The notes: generated by a model from the sequence alone, not told the origin. DNA of 64,000 nucleotides from an uncultured Candidatus Saccharibacteria bacterium (GCA_964593805.1 CAZQHP010000001.1:709283-773282), one strand, 5' to 3'; positions 5,139 to 64,000 are shown, numbered from the stretch's first letter. Numbers and translations: made by a program.

Positions 5139-6389
5139 TCAGCGTGCTAGTTTTTTTATGAGTTCGTCCTCGGATACAAATCCTGCTACGGCTTCAGTAC
5201 GTCCTTTTAGCTCATATGTGGTATTTTCTAGTGTCTTTTCACTCACAACCACTCGGTATGGTATGCCTAGCAAATCAGCATCGGCAAATTTTTCCCCCGG
5301 CCGCACGTCTCTATCATCATACAAAACCGTAGTTCCCGCTTTCTCAAGCTTCTCATATATGGCGTCAGCATATTTGACCGCGTGCGCATTATCATCCAAG
5401 CGAGCCAAATAAACCTTGAAAGGTGCTACGTTTTCCGGCCACACCAGCCCTTTTTCGTCGCTCATAAGCTCGGCCATTACTCCCATGAGACGGCTCACAC
5501 CAATACCATAACAACCCATTTGCAGTGGCTGCAAAACCCCGTTTTCGTCCGTAACTGCCAATCCAAATGGAGTAGTAAATTTGGTACCAAGAGTAAAAAC
5601 ATTGCCGACTTCAATAGCTCGAACCTCTTCAAGGTCATTTTTGTTAAGGCCGAGCTCTTTTACTACTTCGTCCGTAAAGACTTCTTTGTTGATGGCTCTT
5701 TTTTGGCGGCGGTCAAGATAAATAGTGTCTTCACCAGCATCGGTAATAGTTTGAAATTCGTGGCTAAACTTACTGAAGCTACCGCCGCTGGCATATGTTA
5801 TGAAAGTTTGATCACCTATGCCTAGGCGATTATAGACTTTCATATAAGCTTCCGTGGCTTTTTCATAGAAGTCCGTATGCTGTTCGTCGGTCACGGCGTA
5901 AGAATACATATCTTTCATCAGAAACTCGCGACCGCGCATCAATCCGCTTTTAGAGCGCAGCTCGTTTCTAAACTTTGTTTGAATTTGATAGGGCGCAAAT
6001 GGCAGATCGTTATAGCTTGATACATAGTTTTTAACAATCGCTGATAGATTTTCCTCATGTGAAAAACCAAGGCCAAGTTCTGTTCCGTTTACAAGCTTAG
6101 TTTTAAACCAATCATCTACTACTTTGTCATCCCAACGGTTTGTTGCTTCGTAACGCTCTTTTATTTGCAGCGCGGGCATCATTATTTCTTGCCCGCCAAT
6201 GGTATCCATTTCTTCACGAACGATTTGGGCGATATTATTGAGCACCCGCAATCCCAGCGGCAGATAGCTATAAACACCAGCCATTTCTTTATGTATGTAG
6301 CCAGCCTGGATCAAAAGCTGGGCGTTTTTAGCGGTTTCATCCGCCGGCGTGTTTTTTTTGGTCTTGGTAAAAAGCTGTGACATTTTCAT
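5139..6389 (-). CDS. proS: Proline--tRNA ligase, bacterial-like but lacking the INS editing domain
   Basis: ~416 aa. Class II motifs (FRNELRSKSGLMRGREF, GCYGIGVSRL) plus a C-terminal anticodon-binding domain. Only a ~30-aa linker sits where the ~180-aa INS domain would be. Confidence 0.85.
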   Translation of the reverse strand: MKMSQLFTKTKKNTPADETAKNAQLLIQAGYIHKEMAGVYSYLPLGLRVLNNIAQIVREEMDTIGGQEIMMPALQIKERYEATNRWDDKVVDDWFKTKLVNGTELGLGFSHEENLSAIVKNYVSSYNDLPFAPYQIQTKFRNELRSKSGLMRGREFLMKDMYSYAVTDEQHTDFYEKATEAYMKVYNRLGIGDQTFITYASGGSFSKFSHEFQTITDAGEDTIYLDRRQKRAINKEVFTDEVVKELGLNKNDLEEVRAIEVGNVFTLGTKFTTPFGLAVTDENGVLQPLQMGCYGIGVSRLMGVMAELMSDEKGLVWPENVAPFKVYLARLDDNAHAVKYADAIYEKLEKAGTTVLYDDRDVRPGEKFADADLLGIPYRVVVSEKTLENTTYELKGRTEAVAGFVSEDELIKKLAR

Positions 6390-8057: not shown

Positions 8058-9182
8058 TTAGAAAAATCGCTTTACGTCAACTATCGTTATAAGCACAAAC
8101 AGCAGCATCAGAGCCGCAAAACCCGTGCCATGTATCAGGTCTTCGGTTTTTTTGCCAAGCGGTTTGCGAAAAGCCCTAAACAGCAGGGTCACAAATAGCC
8201 TGCCGCCGTCTAATGCCGGGATTGGCAAGGCGTTCATAATCGCTAAAGTGAGTGAAATTATGGCAACAATCATGAGTATAAATTGGTACCCGAGCAGACT
8301 GCCGTCTTTGAGCAATACGAATATGCCGACTGGCCCGGCTACCTGCGCGCTGGCTTTGGCGGTATCACCTCGAAACAAACTGCCCAGTGCCGTGCCAAGT
8401 CCCTTAAAAGTTAGGGCTGTTACTTGTTTTATAAAACCGCCAGCCACAATCGGAGCCGACCAAGTGGAGCGCTGGACTATGTATTCGGTAGGAACAATTC
8501 CCAGATAACCTTTTGGTTTATCTGTTTTTTTACTGTCTTCAACTTCTTGCTTTGTTCTGAGTGTAATATCTAGTTCTTTTTCCTGCCCGCCGCGGAGTAT
8601 GCCTAGACGTACATTCTGGCCTTCGTACCGTTTGGTTATATTTGGCAGATTTTCCGCGGAGCCAATTTGGCTGGTTTCGCCTCCGTACGTAACCCTCAGC
8701 AATTGGTCGCGCTGCGCCAGTCCGGCTTTGGCCGCCGGGCTGCCCTGTTCTACTACGCCAACTAACACGTTTTGCCTTATCACTTTTGTATCGCTGGCCA
8801 CCGTAAACTGGTTTTCGATCAGTTTGGGCATGCCAACCAGGGCTAGAAAAGTTAGCAGCGCAAAAGCAGTAATGAGATTCATTGCTACCCCCGCCAGCAT
8901 AATTTTCACTTTAGTGCTCAGGGTAGCCGCCCCAAAACTGCCCGGTGATTTATCGGCGTCGTTTTCACCTTTTAGCTTCACAAAACCACCGAGTGGCAGC
9001 CAGTTCAACGTAAATACGGTGCCGTTTTTTTTGGTCAAAACTTTGGCACGGGGCGGAAAGCCAATTCCAAATTCTTCAACTTCCACGCCGCCACGCCGCG
9101 CCATGACAAAGTGCCCAAATTCATGCACCACCACCAAGCCTACGAACAAAAACAAACCCAAAACCAGCAATAAAACTGACAT
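8058..9182 (-). CDS. rseP: Site-2 protease, M50 family zinc metalloprotease (RseP-like) with PDZ domain
   Basis: 374 aa. HEFGHFVMARR zinc motif in TM1, a central PDZ-like region, and a C-terminal NALPIPALDGGRL motif. Confidence 0.85.
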   Translation of the reverse strand: MSVLLLVLGLFLFVGLVVVHEFGHFVMARRGGVEVEEFGIGFPPRAKVLTKKNGTVFTLNWLPLGGFVKLKGENDADKSPGSFGAATLSTKVKIMLAGVAMNLITAFALLTFLALVGMPKLIENQFTVASDTKVIRQNVLVGVVEQGSPAAKAGLAQRDQLLRVTYGGETSQIGSAENLPNITKRYEGQNVRLGILRGGQEKELDITLRTKQEVEDSKKTDKPKGYLGIVPTEYIVQRSTWSAPIVAGGFIKQVTALTFKGLGTALGSLFRGDTAKASAQVAGPVGIFVLLKDGSLLGYQFILMIVAIISLTLAIMNALPIPALDGGRLFVTLLFRAFRKPLGKKTEDLIHGTGFAALMLLFVLITIVDVKRFF

Positions 9183-9874
9183 TAGTTTCCAAACCTCCGC
9201 TGTCTAGTGGCAAATTCAGCCAGCGCTTCGTCAAAATCGTCCACCGTAAAAGCCGGCCAATGTTTTTTGACAAAATAAAGTTCGGCGTAGGCCGCCCGCC
9301 ACAACATAAAATTACTCAGGCGCTGTTCTCCCGAAGTCCGAATCACCAGATCCATGGCCGGGATATCCGGCGCGTATAACGCACCCGCAAAATCTTCCAG
9401 CGTAATCACACCAGTTTTTTTGGTACTAACCAGCTTCTGAGCGGCGTCCACAATTTCCTGCTGGCCGCCGTAATTAAAACACAGCGCCAGCGTGCCGCGT
9501 TGGTTGTCTTTTGTCGCTGCTTCTGCTTTTTGTATGGCTTTGAGCAACTTGTCAGACAGACCATCGCGCCGGCCTAAAAACCGGACCCGAATGCCTTCTT
9601 TATGCACCTCTCGTACCTCGCGCGTGGCAACCCACAGAGCCAGATCCAACAGATAGGCTACTTCTTCTTTGCTACGGTTCCAGTTCTCCGCAGAAAAAAT
9701 GTATGCGGAAACATATTGCACGCCTTGATTGACCGCGTGTTTGGCGATTGTTTTCAAATTACCATAGCCCGCACGGTGGCCTTCCAGGGTGGGCAAGCTT
9801 TGGTCTTTGGCCCAGCGGCGGTTGCCGTCAAGTATCAGGCCAACGTGTGTAGGCAGTTTTGCAGTTCCAGACAT
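9182..9874 (-). CDS. uppS: Isoprenyl transferase (undecaprenyl-diphosphate synthase)
   Basis: 230 aa. HVGLILDGNRRWAK and RTSGEQRLSNFMLW motifs. Confidence 0.9.
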   Translation of the reverse strand: MSGTAKLPTHVGLILDGNRRWAKDQSLPTLEGHRAGYGNLKTIAKHAVNQGVQYVSAYIFSAENWNRSKEEVAYLLDLALWVATREVREVHKEGIRVRFLGRRDGLSDKLLKAIQKAEAATKDNQRGTLALCFNYGGQQEIVDAAQKLVSTKKTGVITLEDFAGALYAPDIPAMDLVIRTSGEQRLSNFMLWRAAYAELYFVKKHWPAFTVDDFDEALAEFATRQRRFGN

Positions 9875-52867: not shown

Positions 52868-53401
52868 ATGAAACTTGGAAACCTAAACTTTGAACCGGTA
52901 GAACAAAATTTAAGCTTGGTTAGTGAGCCGACCCAAAAAGCCATCGCCGCCCACAAACTTTCGGGCGTTTTGGTGGCAGAAATCGACCCCGACGTCTCTG
53001 ATACAGCAGCGTTTTGTGAGAAATACAACGTCGGTCTAGATGTTTCGGTAAATTGCGTGATTTTGGAAGCCAAACGCGGTGAGCGAACGTGGTATGCCGC
53101 CTGCATGATTCCGGCTACCGTGCGAGCAGACGTAAACGGCATTGTACGCCGCGCACTAGATGCCAAAAAGATTTCCTTTGCCCCCATGGACAAAGCAGTG
53201 GCTCTAACGGGCATGGAGTTTGGCGCAATCAACCCCATAGGCCTGCCGGCTGACTGGCCCATTTTGGTAGACACCGGCGCTGCCGAACTAGAACACGCCA
53301 TCATCGGTAGCGGCATCCGCAAGTCCAAGCTGTTGGTATCTGGAAAGCTGTTGGCTTCCCTGCCCAACTCCCAAATGCTATCTCTGGTAAAAAGCGACTA
53401 A
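52868..53401 (+). CDS. YbaK/ProX-type aminoacyl-tRNA trans-editing domain protein
   Basis: 177 aa. NCVILEAKRG...ISFAP...TGMEFGAINPIGLP...GSGIRKSKL blocks typical of YbaK/EbsC/ProRS-INS-like deacylases; AAGGAG RBS. Confidence 0.7.
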   Translation: MKLGNLNFEPVEQNLSLVSEPTQKAIAAHKLSGVLVAEIDPDVSDTAAFCEKYNVGLDVSVNCVILEAKRGERTWYAACMIPATVRADVNGIVRRALDAKKISFAPMDKAVALTGMEFGAINPIGLPADWPILVDTGAAELEHAIIGSGIRKSKLLVSGKLLASLPNSQMLSLVKSD

Positions 53402-53404
53402 GAT

Positions 53405-53431
53405 AAAAGCCATCCTTTCGGATGGCTTTTA
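53405..53431. terminator. Bidirectional terminator between the ybaK-like gene and 5S rRNA
   Basis: AAAAGCCATCC-tttc-GGATGGCTTTT. Confidence 0.7.
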
Positions 53432-53437
53432 TATAAT

Positions 53438-53549
53438 TTGGCACCGTGCTATTTTCCCAGGGTTAAAACCCAAGTATTGTAACCGCTGCGAGGCTTAACT
53501 GCTGTGTTCGGCATGGGAACAGGTGTTTCCCTCGCGCCATGGGCACCAA
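53438..53549 (-). rRNA. rrf: 5S ribosomal RNA
   Basis: The reverse complement contains CCUGUUCCCAUGCCGAACACAGCAGUUAAGC, and the termini pair (UUUGGUGCC / GGUGCCAAA). Confidence 0.9.
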
Positions 53550-53804
53550 ACGCGAACTTCGTTCGCGTAATTATCAATTTTCAATTCACAAATTTCAATG
53601 AAATGACAATTAACAATGCACCAAACAAAGGTCAGGCTCAATGTCCATGCGGTAGTATATCATTTATGGTATAAGGCTTAAACAGCTTCATATCATATTT
53701 GGTATACTGCACGAATTTTGAAATATTAAGGCTAACGGGTGGTTAGAACCACCAATAACTAGTCAATGCACTTACTCAGAGAAGGCTCATGCCTTGTCTG
53801 AGTT

Positions 53805-56922
<3,118 letters not shown>

Positions 56923-57250
56923 ACGATATTGTGCATCGACTAGTTATTGGTAATACCAATACCTGTGCCATGTCGAATGACATGGTGCCGTTTGCCTTAT
57001 CGAAGGTCATATACGTTCCATTACGTACACAACCTATCTCAAAATTTGAATCTAATTGTTAAGTTACAAAACCCAAGAACATCCCACAAATACTGAATGA
57101 TTTACCCTGAGAGCTTGAGTTTACGCTGAAAGCCTGCAGGCGATTCCTTACAACTTCTTGCCTAAACTCAAGCAGTTGCAATATCTTATCACTAATAACA
57201 GGGGCGGTCAAGCATATTCTGATGTCAAACTTGCTACGTTTTATAGACTG

Positions 57251-58252
57251 TTAGCGCGGAGGTATTCCTTGCTTTTGCAATCGCTCGTCAGCTTCATTGC
57301 TGAGCCTAGTAATGATCTGTCCTGTCAGTAGATAGTTGAGCGGGTCCTGGTCTTCAGGAGGCTTACCATACTCAAACATTATATGCATGCAACGATTTAT
57401 GGCTTCGGCTGTATGACCATGGCTACGGTGGTTAAGCGGATTAAGTGCCGCTTCTCCTTGGACAGCAGCTTGTCTGTTGAGTAGCGCGGTCACTTGATTA
57501 CCCATCTCAACTATGACGGCATGCAGAGGCACGTCCCTTTTTGGTATTTTCGCCAGAAGCGCTTCCAACACAGATGCATTTCTCCAACCAGACTCTGAAG
57601 CTTCTTTGATAATGTTTGAAAAATTGTCGAATACGCGTCGTCTCAAACTAATTGGGTCCGAATACGGTAAACCAGGCAAAACCTCTTCTACAGGCTCTGT
57701 TTGAAGCTGTTCCACAACATCTGAAAGTATAGATGGGTCCTTTCCTGCTATTTTTGGTCCCATCACATAAGAATTAAATGCCAGTCGACTACTTTCGTCT
57801 CCCGCAGTCTTGGCAAATACCTCTTGCCAGAAACTTTCAGAACTTTGCCCCAGATCATCAACTGCAATGTGTTTATTAGCATCGCCTGCCTGCACCCTCC
57901 AGCTCAGTCGAGACATAACCCTGAGTGACATCAGCCACTGTAAATAACCCGAGGGATATTTCGCAATCCCCCATTTATCAACAGTAATTTGCTCACGCAA
58001 ACCTCTCCCATAGTCAACCAGAGCCTGTTTAGCAGCTTCTAGTTCTTCTACAGATCGCTCTTCTATCAATGCTCTGAAATTTTGGTCAACTGTTGTTGTG
58101 AAAAGTTCCCGTGGCTGATCACGTCTCCCAACACCCCAGGTTACATTATTTTCTGTGACTTGGTGCGCATACTCAACAGCCGACGTGCCTTCTGCCAGTT
58201 CTATAGGCGCCGTAGGGTTTGGTCCGGTTTGTAGTGTTTCTTTTGTAGGCAC
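57251..58252 (-). CDS. Hypothetical cytoplasmic protein (333 aa), downstream partner of the S8 protease
   Basis: Intact ORF with no signal peptide and no recognisable motif. It lies between the protease gene and 23S rRNA. Confidence 0.5.
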   Translation of the reverse strand: MPTKETLQTGPNPTAPIELAEGTSAVEYAHQVTENNVTWGVGRRDQPRELFTTTVDQNFRALIEERSVEELEAAKQALVDYGRGLREQITVDKWGIAKYPSGYLQWLMSLRVMSRLSWRVQAGDANKHIAVDDLGQSSESFWQEVFAKTAGDESSRLAFNSYVMGPKIAGKDPSILSDVVEQLQTEPVEEVLPGLPYSDPISLRRRVFDNFSNIIKEASESGWRNASVLEALLAKIPKRDVPLHAVIVEMGNQVTALLNRQAAVQGEAALNPLNHRSHGHTAEAINRCMHIMFEYGKPPEDQDPLNYLLTGQIITRLSNEADERLQKQGIPPR

Positions 58253-58304
58253 AGTATATGTATTATACTACAATCATCATTAAATAGCAAGCTCCCGGTA
58301 ATGT

Positions 58305-60047
58305 TTATTTTGTAGTCAGTGTAACTGAATTAGATGCAGCTGACTTGTTGTTACTGGCGTCAACAGCCTGAACATAGTAGGTATATCTAGTTCTGCGAGC
58401 AACGGATGTATCGGTGAAAGTCAGGTTAGTTGTCTTGGCGTAAAGCACGCCGTTTCGGTAAATCCAGTATTCTTTTACAGCAACGTTATCTTTGCTAGCT
58501 GTCCAGGTAAGTTTTGGCTTGCCGTTCTGCAGCTTGCCAGTCAGCACAGACGCAGTTGGAGCGGTAGTATCAGCAGGAAGTATTAGTGTGCCTAGTGCAC
58601 GATTTAGGTTTGGTAACGGACCTATATTTCCGGTCAATGTTCCAGCACTGGTGTTTTGCAGAGTTCCAGTCTGAATTAGTGTGCTACGTATCTGTGCAGG
58701 AGTTAGTACTTTGCCTGGGTTGAGTGTTTCGTAAGCAGAGCTTAGAGAAGCGATGGCTGAGGCCACAATTGGAGCAGCCGAACTTGTGCCATTAAAGTTT
58801 GAAGTATATGCACCATTTGGTGTAGTACTTGCTTCTAATGCGCCATAACCAGTTGTTGTTACACATTCTCCATGGCCCTGTAGTTCAACACGTGAACCGT
58901 AATTGCTAAAGTACAAGCGCGAATGAAGCGGCGCGCTACAAGCCGAACCCGCGCCGGCAATAACGGCACCCGAATTTACTTTGCCACTCGGGAAAGTCGT
59001 ACCCCACACCGTTGTGTCATCTAGATTATGACCGCTGTTGGCAGCCGCTTCTACAACATTTATACCGCTGTTTGTCAGCGCTTTAATAGCGTCATATATG
59101 GCTGGCTCCCACTCAACTGGCGCAAATCCGCCCACACTGGCGGGCGCCCAAGTTTGCTGCTCAATTAGAATTACATCACCAGGTACTGCTTTTGTAGCGG
59201 CAACCTGCAATGCGCCGACTATATCCCAACCGCGCTCTGAATTATAGGTATTAACTCTACTGAGTTTAACGCCAGTAGTAGCTCCAGTTACTCCGTAAGT
59301 ATTATCTGTTGCTACCATTTCGCCTAGAACGGCAGTACCGTGGTTTGTGTCATTAAACGGATCAACTGGCGTACCGTTTTTTACCATGGTATACACTGCT
59401 TTGGATAAGTCTTCGTGAGCGGCGTTCCAGCTGTATTCCAGATCAATTATACGCACAGCCGAGCCGGTGCCGCCTGGGAATGTTTTGGCAAAAGTTGCGC
59501 CAATTCCTTCTGGGCTAGGGTTTAGGTACTTCTGCAGGCTGGTGTAGTTGTTTGCCGTCGGTGCGGGCGCGGGCTTTGACTCTGGGTACACGGTTTCCAC
59601 GCTGTCCAACAAAGCAATCTGACCCACCAGAGCTTGAATATTATCTTTGGGAGTAACTTTGACTACAAAGTAGTTGTCTAGCTCGCTTGCCAGTTTAGTG
59701 CTGGCTTCTGTAGCTAGTTCGCTACCTGGACGAACTAGTTTTTCCAGCTTTTGCTTGCCCGCGTCTGCCAGTACTTTATTTATACTGTTAGCTTTGTTGC
59801 TAGTTTTGGTACTTTTAGCTTTGAAGTTGCTAGTCTGATCCAGCTCCATCTCTGCTGAATCTTTAAGCTTAAAAATAAGACTGTCGTTACGGTATTTCTG
59901 AGCGTTTGAATAGTCGTTGTTTGGGTTTGAGCCAGCGTCTACGACGCTGCCCAGACCAAACAGACTAGGTACAACTAAAAGCGCTGCCAGAAACAGAGAC
60001 AAAACAGATACAGTAACCTTGCCAAAACGATTTGCACGTAACTTCAA
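58305..60047 (-). CDS. Secreted subtilisin-like serine protease (S8 family) with C-terminal fibronectin-III-like domain
   Basis: N-terminal signal/anchor (VSVLSLFLAALLVVPSLFGL). Catalytic Asp (VRIIDLEYSW), His (NHGTAVLGEM) and Ser (NGTSSAAPIVAS) in D-H-S order. The C-terminal LTWTASKDNVAVKEYWIYRNG...YYVQAVDASNN segment is FN3-like. Confidence 0.8.
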   Translation of the reverse strand: MKLRANRFGKVTVSVLSLFLAALLVVPSLFGLGSVVDAGSNPNNDYSNAQKYRNDSLIFKLKDSAEMELDQTSNFKAKSTKTSNKANSINKVLADAGKQKLEKLVRPGSELATEASTKLASELDNYFVVKVTPKDNIQALVGQIALLDSVETVYPESKPAPAPTANNYTSLQKYLNPSPEGIGATFAKTFPGGTGSAVRIIDLEYSWNAAHEDLSKAVYTMVKNGTPVDPFNDTNHGTAVLGEMVATDNTYGVTGATTGVKLSRVNTYNSERGWDIVGALQVAATKAVPGDVILIEQQTWAPASVGGFAPVEWEPAIYDAIKALTNSGINVVEAAANSGHNLDDTTVWGTTFPSGKVNSGAVIAGAGSACSAPLHSRLYFSNYGSRVELQGHGECVTTTGYGALEASTTPNGAYTSNFNGTSSAAPIVASAIASLSSAYETLNPGKVLTPAQIRSTLIQTGTLQNTSAGTLTGNIGPLPNLNRALGTLILPADTTAPTASVLTGKLQNGKPKLTWTASKDNVAVKEYWIYRNGVLYAKTTNLTFTDTSVARRTRYTYYVQAVDASNNKSAASNSVTLTTK

Positions 60048-60073
60048 AACAAATACCTTACCTTAATGCAATC

Positions 60074-60102
60074 ATTATATCACCAATATCAATAATTGTC
60101 AA
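60074..60102 (-). promoter_or_regulatory. Perfect consensus sigma-70-type promoter for the S8 protease gene
   Basis: Minus strand TTGACA (60097-60102), a 17-nt spacer, then TATAAT (60074-60079), about 27 nt upstream of the ATG. Confidence 0.6.
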
Positions 60103-60135
60103 CCGCTTGTGCTTGAATTCTGTTGTTGTCACTTA

Positions 60136-60161
60136 AAATAAAAGATCCACCTTTCGGTGGA
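60136..60161 (-). terminator. Rho-independent terminator after the tRNA cluster / tRNA-Ala fragment
   Basis: Minus-strand UCCACC-gaaa-GGUGGA followed by UCUUUUAUUUU. Confidence 0.65.
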
Positions 60162-60168
60162 CACTTTA

Positions 60169-60192
60169 TTTGGTGGAGCAACGGGGACTCGA
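60169..60192 (-). repeat. 24-bp duplicate of the tRNA-Ala 3' end (att-like direct repeat)
   Basis: TTTGGTGGAGCAACGGGGACTCGA is identical at 60169-60192 and 60345-60368. The copy lacks the rest of the tRNA. Confidence 0.8.
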
Positions 60193-60346
60193 CCTACCTT
60201 CGGCAGGCCCGAAACTTCGCGACTGGCAACAAGTTGCCATCGGAAGATTTCCTTGCGAAGTGCCACTGGCACTTCTCACCCGGACCCTGTGCGGGGTTCT
60301 CGATTTTAACCAAACAAAAAGCCCAGCTCAAGCTGGACCCTTTGTT

Positions 60347-60423
60347 TGGTGGAGCAACGGGGACTCGAACCCCGGACCCCCTGCTTGCAAAGCAGGTGCT
60401 CTAGCCAACTGAGCTATTGCCCC
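60347..60423 (-). tRNA. tRNA-Ala (UGC), CCA encoded
   Basis: Reverse complement GGGGCAAUAGCUCAGUUGGCUAGAGCACCUGCUUUGCAAGCAGGGGGUCCGGGGUUCGAGUCCCCGUUGCUCCACCA. Cloverleaf with a G3-U70 pair and UGC anticodon. Confidence 0.9.
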
Positions 60424-60536
60424 ATGTATGAGACAAACCTTCGGTTTTTCTCATCGGTCAGTCGGCAAAAGCCGCCCCGCAAGCGGGCAAGCTGACCTGC
60501 TCTTTTCCCTGGCTTCAGGAAAACAACTTTGTAAAT

Positions 60537-60613
60537 TGGTGGGCGATGAGGGACTCGAACCTCCGACCTCGTCATTATCAGTGACGCGCTCTAACCAGCT
60601 GAGCTAATCGCCC
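60537..60613 (-). tRNA. tRNA-Ile (GAU), CCA encoded
   Basis: Reverse complement GGGCGAUUAGCUCAGCUGGUUAGAGCGCGUCACUGAUAAUGACGAGGUCGGAGGUUCGAGUCCCUCAUCGCCCACCA, with anticodon loop CUGAUAA. Confidence 0.9.
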
Positions 60614-60668
60614 TCGCAAAAGACCAGCGTATTGTACCGGAAACTCCCCTGTTAAACAACTGTAGTTG

Positions 60669-60878
60669 CTAAACGGGTCTTTCCGATTCTGGAGGTTTTG
60701 GTTCTGCAAAGCGAAACCGAAGACCTTGTTTATCTACATACAAGATGGCATGCACGCCTTCTTCGAATCCGATTAATCTTTGCAAAGGCCTCCGAAACAA
60801 GCGTGGAATTTCGTGACCATAAATTACGGCTGGTGACACCCGCTCTTTTTTGCCAGAAGTAGGCTCAACTTCTCCCAT
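60669..60878 (-). CDS. Hypothetical small protein (69 aa)
   Basis: The ORF has a TATAAT (60888-60893, minus strand) about 9 nt upstream of its ATG. No family recognised; it may be non-coding. Confidence 0.3.
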   Translation of the reverse strand: MGEVEPTSGKKERVSPAVIYGHEIPRLFRRPLQRLIGFEEGVHAILYVDKQGLRFRFAEPKPPESERPV

Positions 60879-60899
60879 AGTACGATTATTATAACAAAC

Positions 60900-60954
60900 G
60901 AGGGTTAGCCCTCATCCCCCACCATGAAACACCTTCCAGAGGTGTTTTTATTTT
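60900..60954 (+). repeat. Repeat A: degenerate tRNA-Ile 3' half (T-arm-like hairpin + ATCCCCCACCA) plus terminator hairpin
   Basis: GAGGG-ttag-CCCTC ATCCCCC ACCA resembles GGAGG-uucgagu-CCCUC AUCGCCC ACCA of tRNA-Ile but is on the opposite strand. It is followed by AAACACCT-tccag-AGGTGTTT and a T-run. Positions 60918-60954 repeat at 61548-61584 with one mismatch. Confidence 0.75.
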
Positions 60955-61003
60955 TGTACAAACTTCCTACTATTAGCAACTCAGCTTGTGTTATCATTCA
61001 GAA

Positions 61004-61279
61004 ATGAGCGATACCCAGAATTCCGAGAGGTTACAAAAATCGAATTTTAATACAACCGCACAGTTTATGCTACCTTTCTTTACGCTTAGCTCAATACTAC
61101 TAATATCTTTCAAGCAGCCGCAGTGGGGATTGATAACGAACCTGATTGCCCAGATATTCTGGCTTTATTCCGGTTGGAAAGCCTGGAAGGAAGCAAATCA
61201 GATTGGGATTTTTATAAATGCGATCGCTTTCACGGTCATAGTTATCTTTGGCATTATCAATTATTGGTTTATTAAATAA
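61004..61279 (+). CDS. Hypothetical small membrane protein (91 aa, 3 TM)
   Basis: ATG at 61004. Trp-rich TM helices (IAQIFWLYSGWKAWKEANQIGIFINAIAFTVIVIFGIINYW). Confidence 0.45.
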   Translation: MSDTQNSERLQKSNFNTTAQFMLPFFTLSSILLISFKQPQWGLITNLIAQIFWLYSGWKAWKEANQIGIFINAIAFTVIVIFGIINYWFIK

Positions 61280-61284
61280 GTATA

Positions 61285-61294
61285 CCGCCCACCA
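61285..61294 (+). repeat. Repeat B: CCGCCCACCA core
   Basis: A 10-mer shared with repeat C, of which 9 nt are identical to the tRNA-Ile 3' end. It sits in the 20-nt gap between two small ORFs. Confidence 0.6.
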
Positions 61295-61299
61295 ATTTT

Positions 61300-61542
61300 A
61301 TGAAAGATACCGAACTCAGTAAACTAGTCAAAGAAGCTGAATCAATTGTTGGCGGCAATTGGGATTCGCATGCAGACACTGCACGCGGCCATGCTAAGAT
61401 TCAGTCTTTGCTAGTTGCAACAAATGTAGAACTTATAAAAACCATCCGTGAACTTGACCACAAGAACAGCAGACTCCAGAAACTGGTCTTTCTACTATCT
61501 GTCGTGGCCACCTTTGCAGCGATCGTAGCTCTCATAAAGTAA
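61300..61542 (+). CDS. Hypothetical tail-anchored coiled-coil protein (80 aa)
   Basis: ORF with a C-terminal TM (LVFLLSVVATFAAIVALI). Confidence 0.45.
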   Translation: MKDTELSKLVKEAESIVGGNWDSHADTARGHAKIQSLLVATNVELIKTIRELDHKNSRLQKLVFLLSVVATFAAIVALIK

Positions 61543-61544
61543 AA

Positions 61545-61584
61545 CCGCCCACCATGAAACACCTTACAGAGGTGTTTTTATTTT
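61545..61584 (+). repeat. Repeat C: CCGCCCACCA core plus terminator hairpin (copy of repeat A)
   Basis: CCCACCATGAAACACCTTaCAGAGGTGTTTTTATTTT, exactly 630 bp downstream of repeat A. Confidence 0.75.
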
Positions 61585-61629
61585 GCTTACATTTGTCTGA
61601 GGTTGGGTTGGGTCAGATATAATAGACCT

Positions 61630-61899
61630 ATGAAGAAGTTTTGGAAGCCACTCATTATCTTTGTTGCTCTTAGTTTTATGATTCTAGTGGCTGAGATATT
61701 GGTATTTGAAACTTCTTGCCCTGGACGAGGGTTTTTCAAAGAAAGTAGCGATGGCAGATATTTGTGCGGTACTACCAGCAATGCCGAGGCTGAGATTGGC
61801 CACTTTATCTTGTCGGCAATGCTGCTAGCTCTACTTGCTACTTTCGCTACGCATCTTTTAGTACGAATCATCGAAGGCCTCAGCTCAAAAACTAAATAA
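61630..61899 (+). CDS. Hypothetical small membrane protein (89 aa, 2 TM)
   Basis: ATG at 61630 (MKKFWKPLIIFVALSFMILVA...). Confidence 0.45.
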   Translation: MKKFWKPLIIFVALSFMILVAEILVFETSCPGRGFFKESSDGRYLCGTTSNAEAEIGHFILSAMLLALLATFATHLLVRIIEGLSSKTK

Positions 61900-61937
61900 T
61901 TGCTCGGCTTGCGTCGTTTTAGGGGTAAAATGTTCTT

Positions 61938-62303
61938 GTGAGTTTAGCTTTATTTGTAGTTTTTGTGGTGTTAGTTGTTGTAGTTTTTTGGTGGCTTGTT
62001 GGGTTTACCCTTGGCCTAATTATCGCATTTATACCCAAACCAATTAAAGTTGACCGCTTTATAAACAAAGCAACTGCAAAGCGGTACTTACTCTTTAGCA
62101 CCGTTGTGCTTGTCGCAAGCTACCTTATTGAGCTACCGCTAAAACGCAGCTGTGCGTTTGATGGTTGCATTCCAACCGGTTCTGTTTCTTTTACAAACGC
62201 CGTGTTCGGTCTGCCAGCATATAGTCTCTTTGTCCTCTTTGTAGTTGGAGTTGGCATCTGGACAGCCCGCCTTGTTAGTGTCAAAAGAAAAACCCATATA
62301 TAA
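61938..62303 (+). CDS. Hypothetical membrane protein (121 aa)
   Basis: GTG-start ORF with 3-4 hydrophobic helices. Confidence 0.4.
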   Translation: MSLALFVVFVVLVVVVFWWLVGFTLGLIIAFIPKPIKVDRFINKATAKRYLLFSTVVLVASYLIELPLKRSCAFDGCIPTGSVSFTNAVFGLPAYSLFVLFVVGVGIWTARLVSVKRKTHI

Positions 62304-62374
62304 ACTTCACATCCCGCTCGTGCTTGCTAAGCCAAGATTTCATCGTATTATTAATGATATAGGGAGTTGCTAAT

Positions 62375-62812
62375 ATGACAGAAGTTATTGGCTTACCGAC
62401 AGTAGATAGCGTTATGGACACCATACCAACCGGCCGAAGAGCTTATATAAGCGCTACAACTGATTTGGGAAATGGCGAAGTTATAAAAGACGCTTGGGGA
62501 CATTCCATTGGAGTAATAGTTAACGCGCTTGGGCTTGTTTCGGCAGTGCGTACACTCGCTGAAGCCAGTTTGAAAGACGAGTTAGTGCCGCCTCTACCCG
62601 ATGATCTAAAAACTATATTGGTTACTTTCAAGGATGTAATTGACAGGCACAAAAATGATACTTTTGCAGCCGAAGAGCTGCATACAAAGTACCGTGTTCC
62701 GGCAGAATTGGCGGTTCGCGCCGCACTTGACCATGGTAGTAATGCCCACCAGCGTGCGATTTCTCGGGATCAGACTGTGTTCCCTGTTTCGCCAGATGCA
62801 ATTCAGTTTTAG
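62375..62812 (+). CDS. Hypothetical soluble protein (145 aa)
   Basis: ORF preceded by GGGAG. No family recognised. Confidence 0.45.
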   Translation: MTEVIGLPTVDSVMDTIPTGRRAYISATTDLGNGEVIKDAWGHSIGVIVNALGLVSAVRTLAEASLKDELVPPLPDDLKTILVTFKDVIDRHKNDTFAAEELHTKYRVPAELAVRAALDHGSNAHQRAISRDQTVFPVSPDAIQF

Positions 62813-62824
62813 CCAGTTACAATA

Positions 62825-62835
62825 ATCGCCCACCA
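62825..62835 (+). repeat. Repeat D: ATCGCCCACCA core (11/11 identical to the tRNA-Ile 3' end)
   Basis: Lies directly after the 145-aa ORF and is followed by a weak hairpin and a T-rich tract. Confidence 0.6.
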
Positions 62836-62873
62836 TTAACACCTTTTAGTGTGATTTTGTTTATAATAAGGCT

Positions 62874-63110
62874 ATGCAAAAGAAGCATACGAACTTTCTC
62901 ATCACACTGACTTTCCTTATACCCAGTGTATTTCTAATATGGTTTGTGCTATTACGCCCACAGATCAAGAGTGCTGAAAGCAAGTGTTATTCTCCAAATG
63001 GTAAGCAAAATATAGAAATACAGCATGGTCTTCTAAGTTTAGAATGTAGGGTATTGGATGATCCTAGCGGGAATGAACAGCTTACAAAAACCTATAATTA
63101 CTTTTGGTAA
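62874..63110 (+). CDS. Hypothetical small secreted/anchored protein (78 aa)
   Basis: N-terminal hydrophobic helix (FLITLTFLIPSVFLIWFVLL) and two Cys. Confidence 0.4.
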   Translation: MQKKHTNFLITLTFLIPSVFLIWFVLLRPQIKSAESKCYSPNGKQNIEIQHGLLSLECRVLDDPSGNEQLTKTYNYFW

Positions 63111-63115
63111 CTAAA

Positions 63116-63151
63116 AGCGCCCTTCTCGCAAATAGGGCGCTTTCGTTTTTT
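63116..63151 (+). terminator. Strong terminator where the small-gene array and 16S rRNA converge
   Basis: AGCGCCCT-tctcgcaaat-AGGGCGCT followed by TTCGTTTTTT. Confidence 0.7.
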
Positions 63152-63353
63152 GAGGCTTCTCGGTCTTTTGTGTCCGCTAAAAACTTTTATAGTGCAAATC
63201 AAACGTCAGGTCGTGTTACAGAACTGAAATCTTGTCCTTCGCTCTCGCAAGCAATTGCGAAGGATATGTGAGTTGTCAGTACTGATATTACAACTCACCA
63301 AGATCGACCTAGCTCGCAAAGGATTGCTCCGCATGCTGCTAGTTTTCTCCCTA

Positions 63354-64000
<647 letters not shown>

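Follow-up and report, generated by a model that had tools for sequence, protein, structure and literature searches.

Organization of the rRNA locus

The 64,000-nucleotide stretch of DNA analyzed here (the window; GCA_964593805.1, CAZQHP010000001.1:709283-773282) contains the single rRNA locus of an uncultured Saccharimonadales genome (Saccharibacteria, Candidate Phyla Radiation, CPR), in which tRNA and protein genes lie between the genes for 16S and 23S rRNA. This locus is part of a 776,748-bp metagenome contig, on which 16S has gyrB and gyrA upstream and 5S has ROK, S1 and IF2 genes downstream, and the closest public genomes are annotated as Candidatus Saccharibacteria or Saccharimonadales. 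RNA gene coordinates were taken from Rfam and ARAGORN, and every RNA gene lies on the minus strand (Table 1). The order 16S-tRNA-23S-5S is confined to 10.6 kb.

An earlier reading of this sequence by itself, hereafter the original prediction, had described a 16S-23S gap of about 6.4 kb that keeps the canonical spacer tRNAs (Ile-GAU and Ala-UGC) and is otherwise protein-coding. This description was borne out. The gap measures 6,431 bp (56924-63354) and contains, besides both tRNAs, a gene for an S8 protease of 580 amino acids (aa), a 333-aa open reading frame (ORF333) and a block of small ORFs, six of them on the plus strand, for a total of up to nine ORFs. Rfam searches at permissive thresholds found nothing in the gap except the two tRNAs.

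Table 1. Features of the rRNA locus, listed in the reading direction of the RNA genes; promoters and terminators are predictions (aa, amino acids; nt, nucleotides).
Feature	Position	Strand	Remarks
16S rRNA, 3′ part	63355-64000	-	Rfam RF00177, 649.8 bits; model positions 859-1533; cut by window end
16S trailer, 3′ arm of 16S processing stem	63175-63212	-	38 nt, 89% complementary to L001 3226-3262
Intrinsic terminator after 16S	63112-63151	-	Hairpin 63116-63151, -18.3 kcal/mol on minus strand
Window-specific insertion, ~2.45 kb	60662-63111	+	42% GC against 48% for the window; boundaries from alignment with L004 and L008
ORFs	60986-61279, 61300-61542, 61603-61899	+	Inside 2.45-kb insertion
ORFs	61938-62303, 62375-62812, 62874-63110	+	Inside 2.45-kb insertion
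Inverted tRNA-Ile 3′-end copy and terminator hairpin	60893-60948	+	CCCTCATCCCCCACCA, 15/16 matches, including T-stem 3′ strand; 9-mer at 60916-60924
Further CGCCCACCA copies	61286-61294, 61546-61554 (hairpin to 61578), 62827-62835	+	
69-aa ORF	60669-60878	-	Inside 2.45-kb insertion
tRNA-pair promoter, TTGTTT-17-TACAAT	60631-60659	-	~18 nt upstream of tRNA-Ile
tRNA-Ile (GAT)	60537-60613	-	ARAGORN, Rfam
tRNA-Ala (TGC)	60347-60423	-	ARAGORN, Rfam
176-bp insertion	~60193-60368	-	Adds second terminator and structured element; absent from L004
First terminator after tRNA-Ala	60309-60346	-	-20.1 kcal/mol, z = -4.45; inverted repeat; belongs to 176-bp insertion
Structured element	60168-60300	-	Ends in copy of last 22 nt of tRNA-Ala (60171-60192)
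Second, ancestral terminator after tRNA-Ala	60136-60168	-	CCACCGAAAGGTGG and T-run; -17.7 kcal/mol
Protease promoter, TTGACA-17-TGnTATAAT	60074-60102	-	12/12 consensus matches, extended -10
Secreted S8 (subtilisin-like) serine protease, 580 aa	58305-60047	-	PF00082, 57.8 bits (cut-off 21.8); N-terminal signal-like segment
Window-specific cassette, 1.06 kb	57243-58304	-	Between protease stop codon and 23S promoter block
Promoter-like site, TTGCTA-17-TATAAT	58262-58290	-	In ORF333 cassette
ORF333, 333 aa	57251-58252	-	Absent at this site in L004 and L008
23S promoter block	57183-57236	-	-35 TTGACC 57206-57211; -10 TAAGAT 57183-57188; 17-nt spacer; upstream segment GTAGCAAGTTTGACATCAGAATATGC
23S leader	57052-57173	-	Hairpin 57113-57173 (inverted repeat), then boxA-like AACTTAACAATTAG 57052-57065
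23S processing stem, 5′ arm	56931-56951	-	Pairs with 53751-53771; 21 nt, 95% complementary; conserved in six genomes
23S rRNA, 3,119 nt	53805-56923	-	Rfam RF02541, 2,622.7 bits; model positions 1-2925
5S rRNA	53436-53550	-	Rfam RF00001
Terminator after 5S	53395-53432	-	-23.6 kcal/mol, z = -4.8; kept in L004 with compensatory stem changes

Conserved candidate promoters and terminators

Signals that might start or end transcription were compared with those of related genomes, named here by L numbers. The 16S gene, which is complete in L001 (3345-4898), has a candidate promoter just outside the window (TTGACA-17-TAAGAT), and its -10 hexamer is identical to that of the 23S promoter. The partner of the 16S trailer lies upstream of the gene, beyond the window, and the same relation holds in L004 and L008. 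In these two genomes the 16S gene is followed by the trailer stem, a G+C-rich hairpin with a T-run, a few bases, the tRNA promoter and the first tRNA. The window holds both signals, the terminator and the tRNA promoter, but 2.45 kb apart. The original prediction took the hairpin at 63116-63151 for a strong convergent terminator at the end of an antisense gene array. The hairpin itself is real, but its homologs in L004 and L008, neither of which carries the ORF block, mark it as the ancestral 16S terminator and not as something that arrived with the array. It is probably bidirectional, in which case it would also end the plus-strand ORF block.

The candidate promoter of the tRNA pair is kept as TTGTTTAACAG...GGTACAAT in L004 and L008, and its -10 hexamer recurs in L018. 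Downstream of tRNA-Ala, the original prediction placed a terminator at 60136-60161; this hairpin was recovered, but the account was incomplete, since two terminators follow this gene and one had been missed. The additional one came with a 176-bp insertion whose flanks are copies of the tRNA-Ala 3′ end; the stem of the ancestral terminator stands directly 3′ of tRNA-Ala in L004. The hairpins after tRNA-Ala have z scores of about -4.3, and across relatives the position of the terminators is held while the stem sequence is altered in a compensatory way.

The predicted protease gene and the consensus promoter match before it were both recovered. The protein belongs to the Peptidase S8 (subtilase) family, both by its profile score and by its Asp-His-Ser triad: a search returned 2,373 homologs, and Asp202, His236 and Ser422 are invariant among the 14 homologs compared. 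The promoter consensus is conserved in five genomes, including L004, L008, L011 and L013, and L018 carries a near-consensus version (TTGACT and TATAAT). In L013 the promoter accompanies the gene even outside the rRNA locus. Folding revealed no terminator after the protease gene or after ORF333, and hence none between either of them and 23S, so 23S might also be reached by read-through from the protease promoter.

The candidate 23S promoter of the original prediction (57183-57211) was recovered as a match within a block that is nearly invariant, as GTAGCAAGTTTGACATCAGAATATGCTTGACC, in a six-genome alignment. These six promoters share TTGAC(C/T), a spacer of 17-18 nt and a TG, and all except that of L022 (TAAACT) have a -10 hexamer that fits TAnnAT; promoter scans of L004 and L008 also recover the site. 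The block starts directly after the stop codon of whichever gene lies upstream, be it the protease, ORF333 or a Big_13-like gene. When metagenomes were scanned with the 29-nt promoter block, just two contigs came back, and one of these was already known. In the 23S leader, CTTAACAA is invariant in the six genomes, and comparison with the Escherichia coli consensus TGCTCTTTAACAA suggests that this box is boxA-like. The 21-bp processing stem flanking 23S (53751-53771 with 56931-56951) is also as originally described.

The rRNA loci of related genomes

Related loci were obtained from the genomic contexts of protease homologs, onto which the features of the window were mapped with blastn and Rfam. 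The closest relative, L004 (16S 98.6% identical, protease 82%), has the compact order 16S, 244 bp, tRNA-Ile, tRNA-Ala, protease, 23S and 5S, with neither the ORF block nor ORF333. In L008 (protease 70%), the order is 16S, tRNA-Ala, tRNA-Ile, a GIY-YIG endonuclease gene, a hybrid pseudo-tRNA, the protease and 23S. L011 and L072 (protease 55%) carry more genes: 16S is followed by a 302-aa ORF, both tRNAs in inverted orientation, the protease and a Big_13-like gene of 872-972 aa, and then by the 23S promoter, a duplicated 23S 5′ fragment, a glycosyltransferase gene and 23S. The protease gene lies directly upstream of 23S in L019 and L022 (48% and 52%). In two further genomes the protease follows tRNA genes, tRNA-Ile and tRNA-Ala (TGC) in L018 (45%) and two other tRNA-Ala genes in L021 (44%), with no 23S in the following 5-10 kb of contig. 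Finally, L017 (69%) has the protease, a truncated relic of the 23S promoter block (5790-5845) and then unrelated DNA; in L013 (78%) the protease lies between a histidine kinase gene and secE-nusG, and in L009 (48%) its context is likewise without rRNA genes.

The position of the protease between tRNA-Ala and 23S thus appears to be an old, clade-wide feature, since relatives with proteases 48-82% identical hold it at the same place. The ORF block and ORF333, in comparison, appear to be private to the lineage of the window.

Several of these loci have rearrangements of their own. In L008 (8367-9905), the endonuclease ORF (LEM-3-like, 8965-9729) follows tRNAs in Ala-then-Ile order and precedes a pseudo-tRNA composed of the first 46-58 nt of tRNA-Ile (46 nt at 100% and 58 nt at 95% identity by blastn) joined to a tRNA-Ala-like 3′ end, a layout which suggests that the original tRNA pair gave way to an incoming cassette. 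The duplicated 23S 5′-end fragment (about 490 bp in L011) and the glycosyltransferase family 2 gene stand between the 23S promoter and the real 23S at 7150-9092 of L011 and 255-2151 of L072. In L017, the relic ends at the -10 hexamer and 23S is gone, as at a rearrangement breakpoint; this is a fully unlinked state and would be a later stage of the same process.

DNA specific to the window

The 2.45-kb block is bordered by the T-run of the 16S terminator on one side and by the tRNA promoter on the other. Codon usage is clearly gene-like in three of its ORFs (80, 121 and 145 aa) and weaker in the others. None of the block ORFs has a Pfam, PHROG or NCBIfam match, and the 145-aa ORF has one distant homolog. 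The 3′ end of tRNA-Ile is formed by the 9-mer CSCCCACCA. Of its five occurrences in the 64 kb, one is in the gene and the other four are in the block, and none of 100 shuffled sequences reached five. The four block copies each come after ORFs, two of them followed by an identical terminator hairpin and a third by a degenerate version.

Because such an array of small ORFs and repeats might recall integron cassettes, this reading was considered and rejected. Cassettes would be followed by attC sites of at least 57 bp with RYYYAAC and GTTRRRY cores and be accompanied by an intI gene; inspection of the block by eye found no attC core sites, and there is no integrase. The repeats after the block ORFs are instead 23-nt terminator hairpins together with the tRNA-Ile-like 9-mer.

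The second insertion is the 176-bp segment after tRNA-Ala. It is bounded by direct repeats of the tRNA-Ala 3′ end (60347-60368 and 60171-60192) within a 57-nt unit of 81% identity, accompanied by a repeated 12-mer. Islands targeted to tRNA genes are characterized by such direct repeats of a tRNA 3′ end on either side of the insert.

The third insertion carries ORF333, which has about 25 distant homologs by full HMMER search, at no more than 39% identity; no homolog was found in a word-index search, and no family in Pfam, PHROGs or NCBIfam. Its AlphaFold2 model is all-alpha with a mean confidence score (pLDDT) of 83, and neither a PDB-sequence profile search nor a Foldseek search with the model returned anything significant. 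Since one homolog lies in an ordinary CPR chromosomal context, the family does not appear to be tied to rRNA loci.

A probable modular locus and the alternatives

The gene order, the conservation of the signals, the boundaries of the insertions and the support for the assembly were observed directly. They are best explained, with a probability that we put at roughly 0.7, by a locus of four modules whose layout, protease included, is ancestral to the Saccharimonadales clade, which later received insertions at its seams and whose modules would give rise to separate transcripts. All four modules would be read from the same strand, each from its own sigma-70-type promoter. The first would consist of the 16S promoter, leader, 16S gene, trailer stem and intrinsic terminator; the second of the tRNA promoter, both tRNAs and an intrinsic terminator; the third of the perfect consensus promoter and the secreted protease gene, here followed by ORF333, with no terminator; and the fourth of the 23S promoter, leader hairpin, boxA-like box, processing stem, 23S, 5S and terminator. 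Because L004 and L008 hold these signals without the insertions, the locus would already have been a chain of self-contained modules before the window-specific DNA entered. The three genome-specific pieces (the 2.45-kb block, the 176-bp element and the 1.06-kb ORF333 cassette) would each have entered a seam, where a terminator or stop codon gives way to the following promoter, and since every insertion lies exactly in a seam, no RNA gene or signal has been broken. The route of entry may have been recombination at tRNA ends, as the tRNA 3′-end copies at the insertions suggest. Transcripts from the protease promoter would run into the 23S leader, and cleavage at the 23S stem would presumably separate them.

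If the promoters and terminators function, as we infer, then 16S, the tRNAs and 23S-5S would be on separate transcripts. To this extent the original prediction that these genes are no longer co-transcribed is supported by the conserved signals. Its count of three transcription units does not stand, however, given the four candidate promoters and the lack of a terminator between the protease gene or ORF333 and 23S.

Several considerations weigh against this interpretation. All of the promoters and terminators are predictions with conservation as their sole support, and rRNA antitermination complexes could read through some of the sites. The tRNA promoter has a weak -35 hexamer (TTGTTT) and falls below the listing level of the promoter scan. 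The comparison rests on about eight contigs of metagenome-assembled genomes, several of them short. The proposed insertion route is weakened by the tRNA-Ile 3′-end copies in the block, which run opposite to the present tRNA-Ile, and searches of Pfam, PHROGs and NCBIfam found no recombinase or integrase domain in any ORF of 56924-63354. As there is no recombinase gene, we hold the step of recombination at tRNA ends with low confidence. Inversion of the tRNA pair is possible in this clade, as the L011 spacer tRNAs, inverted relative to the rRNA genes, demonstrate.

An unlikely alternative, and yet the strongest of those considered, is that the locus is one working operon. Antitermination of the Nus/boxA type would carry transcription from the 16S promoter through to 23S-5S, the internal promoters would be supplementary, and RNase III acting at the 23S stem would remove the protease mRNA. 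Only four U's trail the stem of the 16S terminator in the window, which would ease passage there, and from the protease or ORF333 onward no terminator stands before 23S. Moreover, compact Saccharimonadia loci with tRNAs and ORFs were counted as operonic in a published survey (PMC8172020). However, the path would cross three strong sites consisting of a hairpin and U-run, which are conserved in relatives with compensatory stem changes, and 2.45 kb of antisense transcription over genes with their own signals; every downstream module, furthermore, has its own conserved promoter. Antitermination at rRNA (rrn) operons acts mainly on Rho-dependent terminators, not on intrinsic ones such as those predicted here.

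Slightly less probable still is the scenario of the original prediction, in which insertions at both spacer tRNAs recently split a formerly co-transcribed operon in this lineage, bringing terminators with them and making new promoters necessary. The ORF block, the 176-bp element and ORF333 are truly lineage-specific, lie beside the tRNAs, are absent from L004 and are marked by tRNA 3′-end copies, all as this scenario would expect. Nevertheless, the comparison of related rRNA loci indicates that the splitting signals predate the DNA specific to the window. All five are already present in L004 and L008, where the block and ORF333 are missing: the 16S terminator (a homolog of the 63116-63151 hairpin), the tRNA promoter, the tRNA-Ala terminator, and the promoters of the protease and 23S. 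The position of the protease, held by relatives whose proteases are 48-82% identical, is equally at odds with a recent split.

The least probable explanation is that a short-read assembler wrongly joined the intervening DNA into the rRNA locus: rRNA loci are a classical place for chimeric joins in metagenome assemblies, and 197 bp between the two tRNAs are the sole stretch not bridged by a second contig, but independently assembled contigs span each new junction, the boundaries of the insertions coincide cleanly with homologous flanks, and the order gyrB-gyrA-16S-tRNAs-protease-23S-5S-ROK-S1 recurs in L004, which comes from a separate study, so that misassembly is very unlikely. The contigs in question were made with a different assembler and reach the tRNAs from both sides, running into 16S and 23S, such that all junctions between RNA genes and inserted DNA are seen twice. 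Logan contig L002 (SRR8863434) is 100% identical to the window over 56659-60387, and Logan contig L074, at 2,811 bp, has the exact length of window positions 60584-63394, with its first and last 120 bases matching exactly. In a third contig, L075, from a separate European Nucleotide Archive analysis, the same 145-aa protein adjoins the 121-aa ORF.

Relation to known rRNA arrangements

The modular locus is a well-resolved example of an arrangement already known for the phylum; it is not new, since ORF-filled and unlinked rRNA loci have been documented for Saccharibacteria and other CPR bacteria. A canonical linked operon has a spacer of a few hundred bp with tRNA genes at most and with no internal terminators or promoters, whereas this spacer is 6.4 kb long, contains ORFs and holds three predicted terminator hairpins and three conserved candidate promoters. 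By the definition of Brewer et al. (bioRxiv 10.1101/705046), who call a spacer of more than 1,500 bp unlinked and count Patescibacteria as one of the clades with many unlinked rRNA genes, the 6,431-bp spacer is unlinked by a wide margin. Lui et al. 2021 (PMC8172020) found unlinked genes in 27 of 34 circularized CPR genomes, with categories that include exactly those seen in the window. The six plus-strand ORFs between 16S and tRNA-Ile place the locus in their category D (unlinked by distance, more than 2,000 bp with opposite-strand genes). The same survey contains two Saccharimonadia genomes, whose spacers measure 1,456 and 1,959 bp, and classes both as "operonic by tRNAs and ORFs". CPR bacteria are a known stronghold of the unlinked arrangement, but the two genes of an unlinked pair are mostly separated by tens to hundreds of kb, whereas here the order is kept within 10.6 kb. 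The original prediction of an intermediate state between linked and unlinked therefore fits the series seen in relatives, yet by these published criteria (Brewer et al.; PMC8172020) the locus is unlinked already.

Spacers with protein genes and tRNAs were described for Saccharibacteria by Murugkar et al. 2020 (PMC7651992), and the window is of this kind, with tRNA-Ala (TGC), tRNA-Ile (GAT) and variously oriented protein genes between 16S and 23S. The 7-kb amplicon that results in TM7x is noted in a 2025 preprint (PMC12424978). According to Murugkar et al., the loci of oral Saccharibacteria (TM7) carry a conserved 79-aa membrane protein gene and pyrD, usually with tRNA-Val, none of which is present in the window or its relatives. 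A tblastn search with four sequences of the 79-aa protein gave no match in the window or the related loci, and there is no pyrD domain among the spacer ORFs of the window. The conserved spacer gene is here the S8 protease, and the remainder are ORFans. Promoters or terminators inside the locus are not mentioned in the portions of these two oral TM7 papers that were available (PMC7651992, PMC12424978).

Classical split loci, with 16S apart from 23S-5S, are known from Thermus, Helicobacter, Borrelia, Rickettsia and Buchnera (PMC8172020). They resemble the window in that 16S and 23S-5S each appear to have their own promoter, leader and processing stem, but theirs are dispersed around the chromosome, whereas those of the window adjoin and the spacer tRNAs would form a third unit.

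What our analysis adds is a different conserved spacer gene (the S8 protease instead of the 79-aa protein and pyrD), support from sequence and comparison for a separate promoter and terminator at every module even where relatives are compact, and a graded series of loci that runs from compact to dispersed. The series points to an order of events in which self-contained modules came first, the seams then filled with cargo (L004, the window, L011), and the modules finally separated (L017, L018 and L021). The locus is thus a clear example of rRNA operons coming apart in small-genome bacteria. In practice, surveys based on long amplicons across 16S, the internal transcribed spacer and 23S will miss or mis-size such organisms, and where surveys call compact Saccharimonadia loci operonic on gene order alone, their view of transcription may be mistaken. 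Current understanding is not overturned by these observations; the one odd item is the structured element linked to tRNA genes.

A structured element linked to tRNA genes

Genomic islands that enter at the 3′ ends of tRNA genes leave partial copies of these genes behind. Such tRNA gene fragments have been reviewed (PMC9897764). The window resembles these islands in that the final 22-25 nt of tRNA-Ala are directly repeated at the bounds of inserted DNA and in the low GC content of the inserted ORF block, and in L008 and L011 the tRNA-Ile 3′ end recurs once more at a distance of about 170-185 bp from the gene. It differs in that there is no integrase gene, that the insert at tRNA-Ala is only 176 bp long, that the tRNA-Ile copies of the block are inverted, and that the repeat-flanked segment holds a conserved structured element, not random remnant DNA.

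Segments homologous to the 176-bp insert occur in four other genomes (L011, L017, L008 and L009), in two types. The long type, with an insert of about 95 nt, is found after tRNA-Ala in the window, after tRNA-Ile in L011 (1649-1790, minus strand) and in L017 (6895-7045, minus strand). The short type, with an insert of about 54 nt, follows tRNA-Ile in L008 (8565-8701) and tRNA-fMet in L009 (6465-6600). The layout begins with an intact tRNA, a terminator-like hairpin, a short spacer and a copy of the variable loop and T-stem 5′ strand, and continues with a hairpin-rich insert followed by the T-stem 3′ strand, the acceptor 3′ strand and CCA of the same tRNA; the L017 copy, with no clean tRNA 3′ end, is the exception. 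The element thereby resembles the 3′ half of a tRNA with an insert in its T loop. In the long type, compensatory double changes affect 19 of 43 predicted pairs (three sequences only), and in the short type two distant genomes share about 90% identity over 58 nt.

The element has no Rfam match, and a covariance model built from it detected no additional copy when run on the window and 14 loci. A reading of the tRNA-Ala-like 3′ end as part of a transfer-messenger RNA was dropped, ARAGORN having found none. Two scans of viral contigs with the conserved parts of the element gave no match, so an origin from a phage attP site is unsupported. The element might be a functional RNA, a small mobile element or a site of recombination. 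A speculative possibility, which we consider improbable, is that this sequence of about 130 nt is an undescribed mobile or functional element targeting the conserved T-loop region of tRNA genes, and that recombination at its copies loads foreign genes into the rRNA loci of Saccharibacteria, perhaps also of other CPR bacteria, and eventually breaks them apart.

Other observations in the 23S-5S region

A promoter-like site 20 nt upstream of 5S (53570-53598, minus strand; TTGAAA-17-GATAAT, 10/12) is unconserved in L004 and probably due to chance. In L008 (11983-12002), the part of the 23S leader that separates the promoter from the boxA-like box contains a terminator-like hairpin with a T-run. 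L011 shares the segment that carries it, and the window and L004 lack it. This may represent either an attenuator or one more small insertion. The 23S gene itself contains expansion segments, its 3,119 nt (3,226 nt in L004) comparing with 2,925 positions of the Rfam model, to which the match is continuous.

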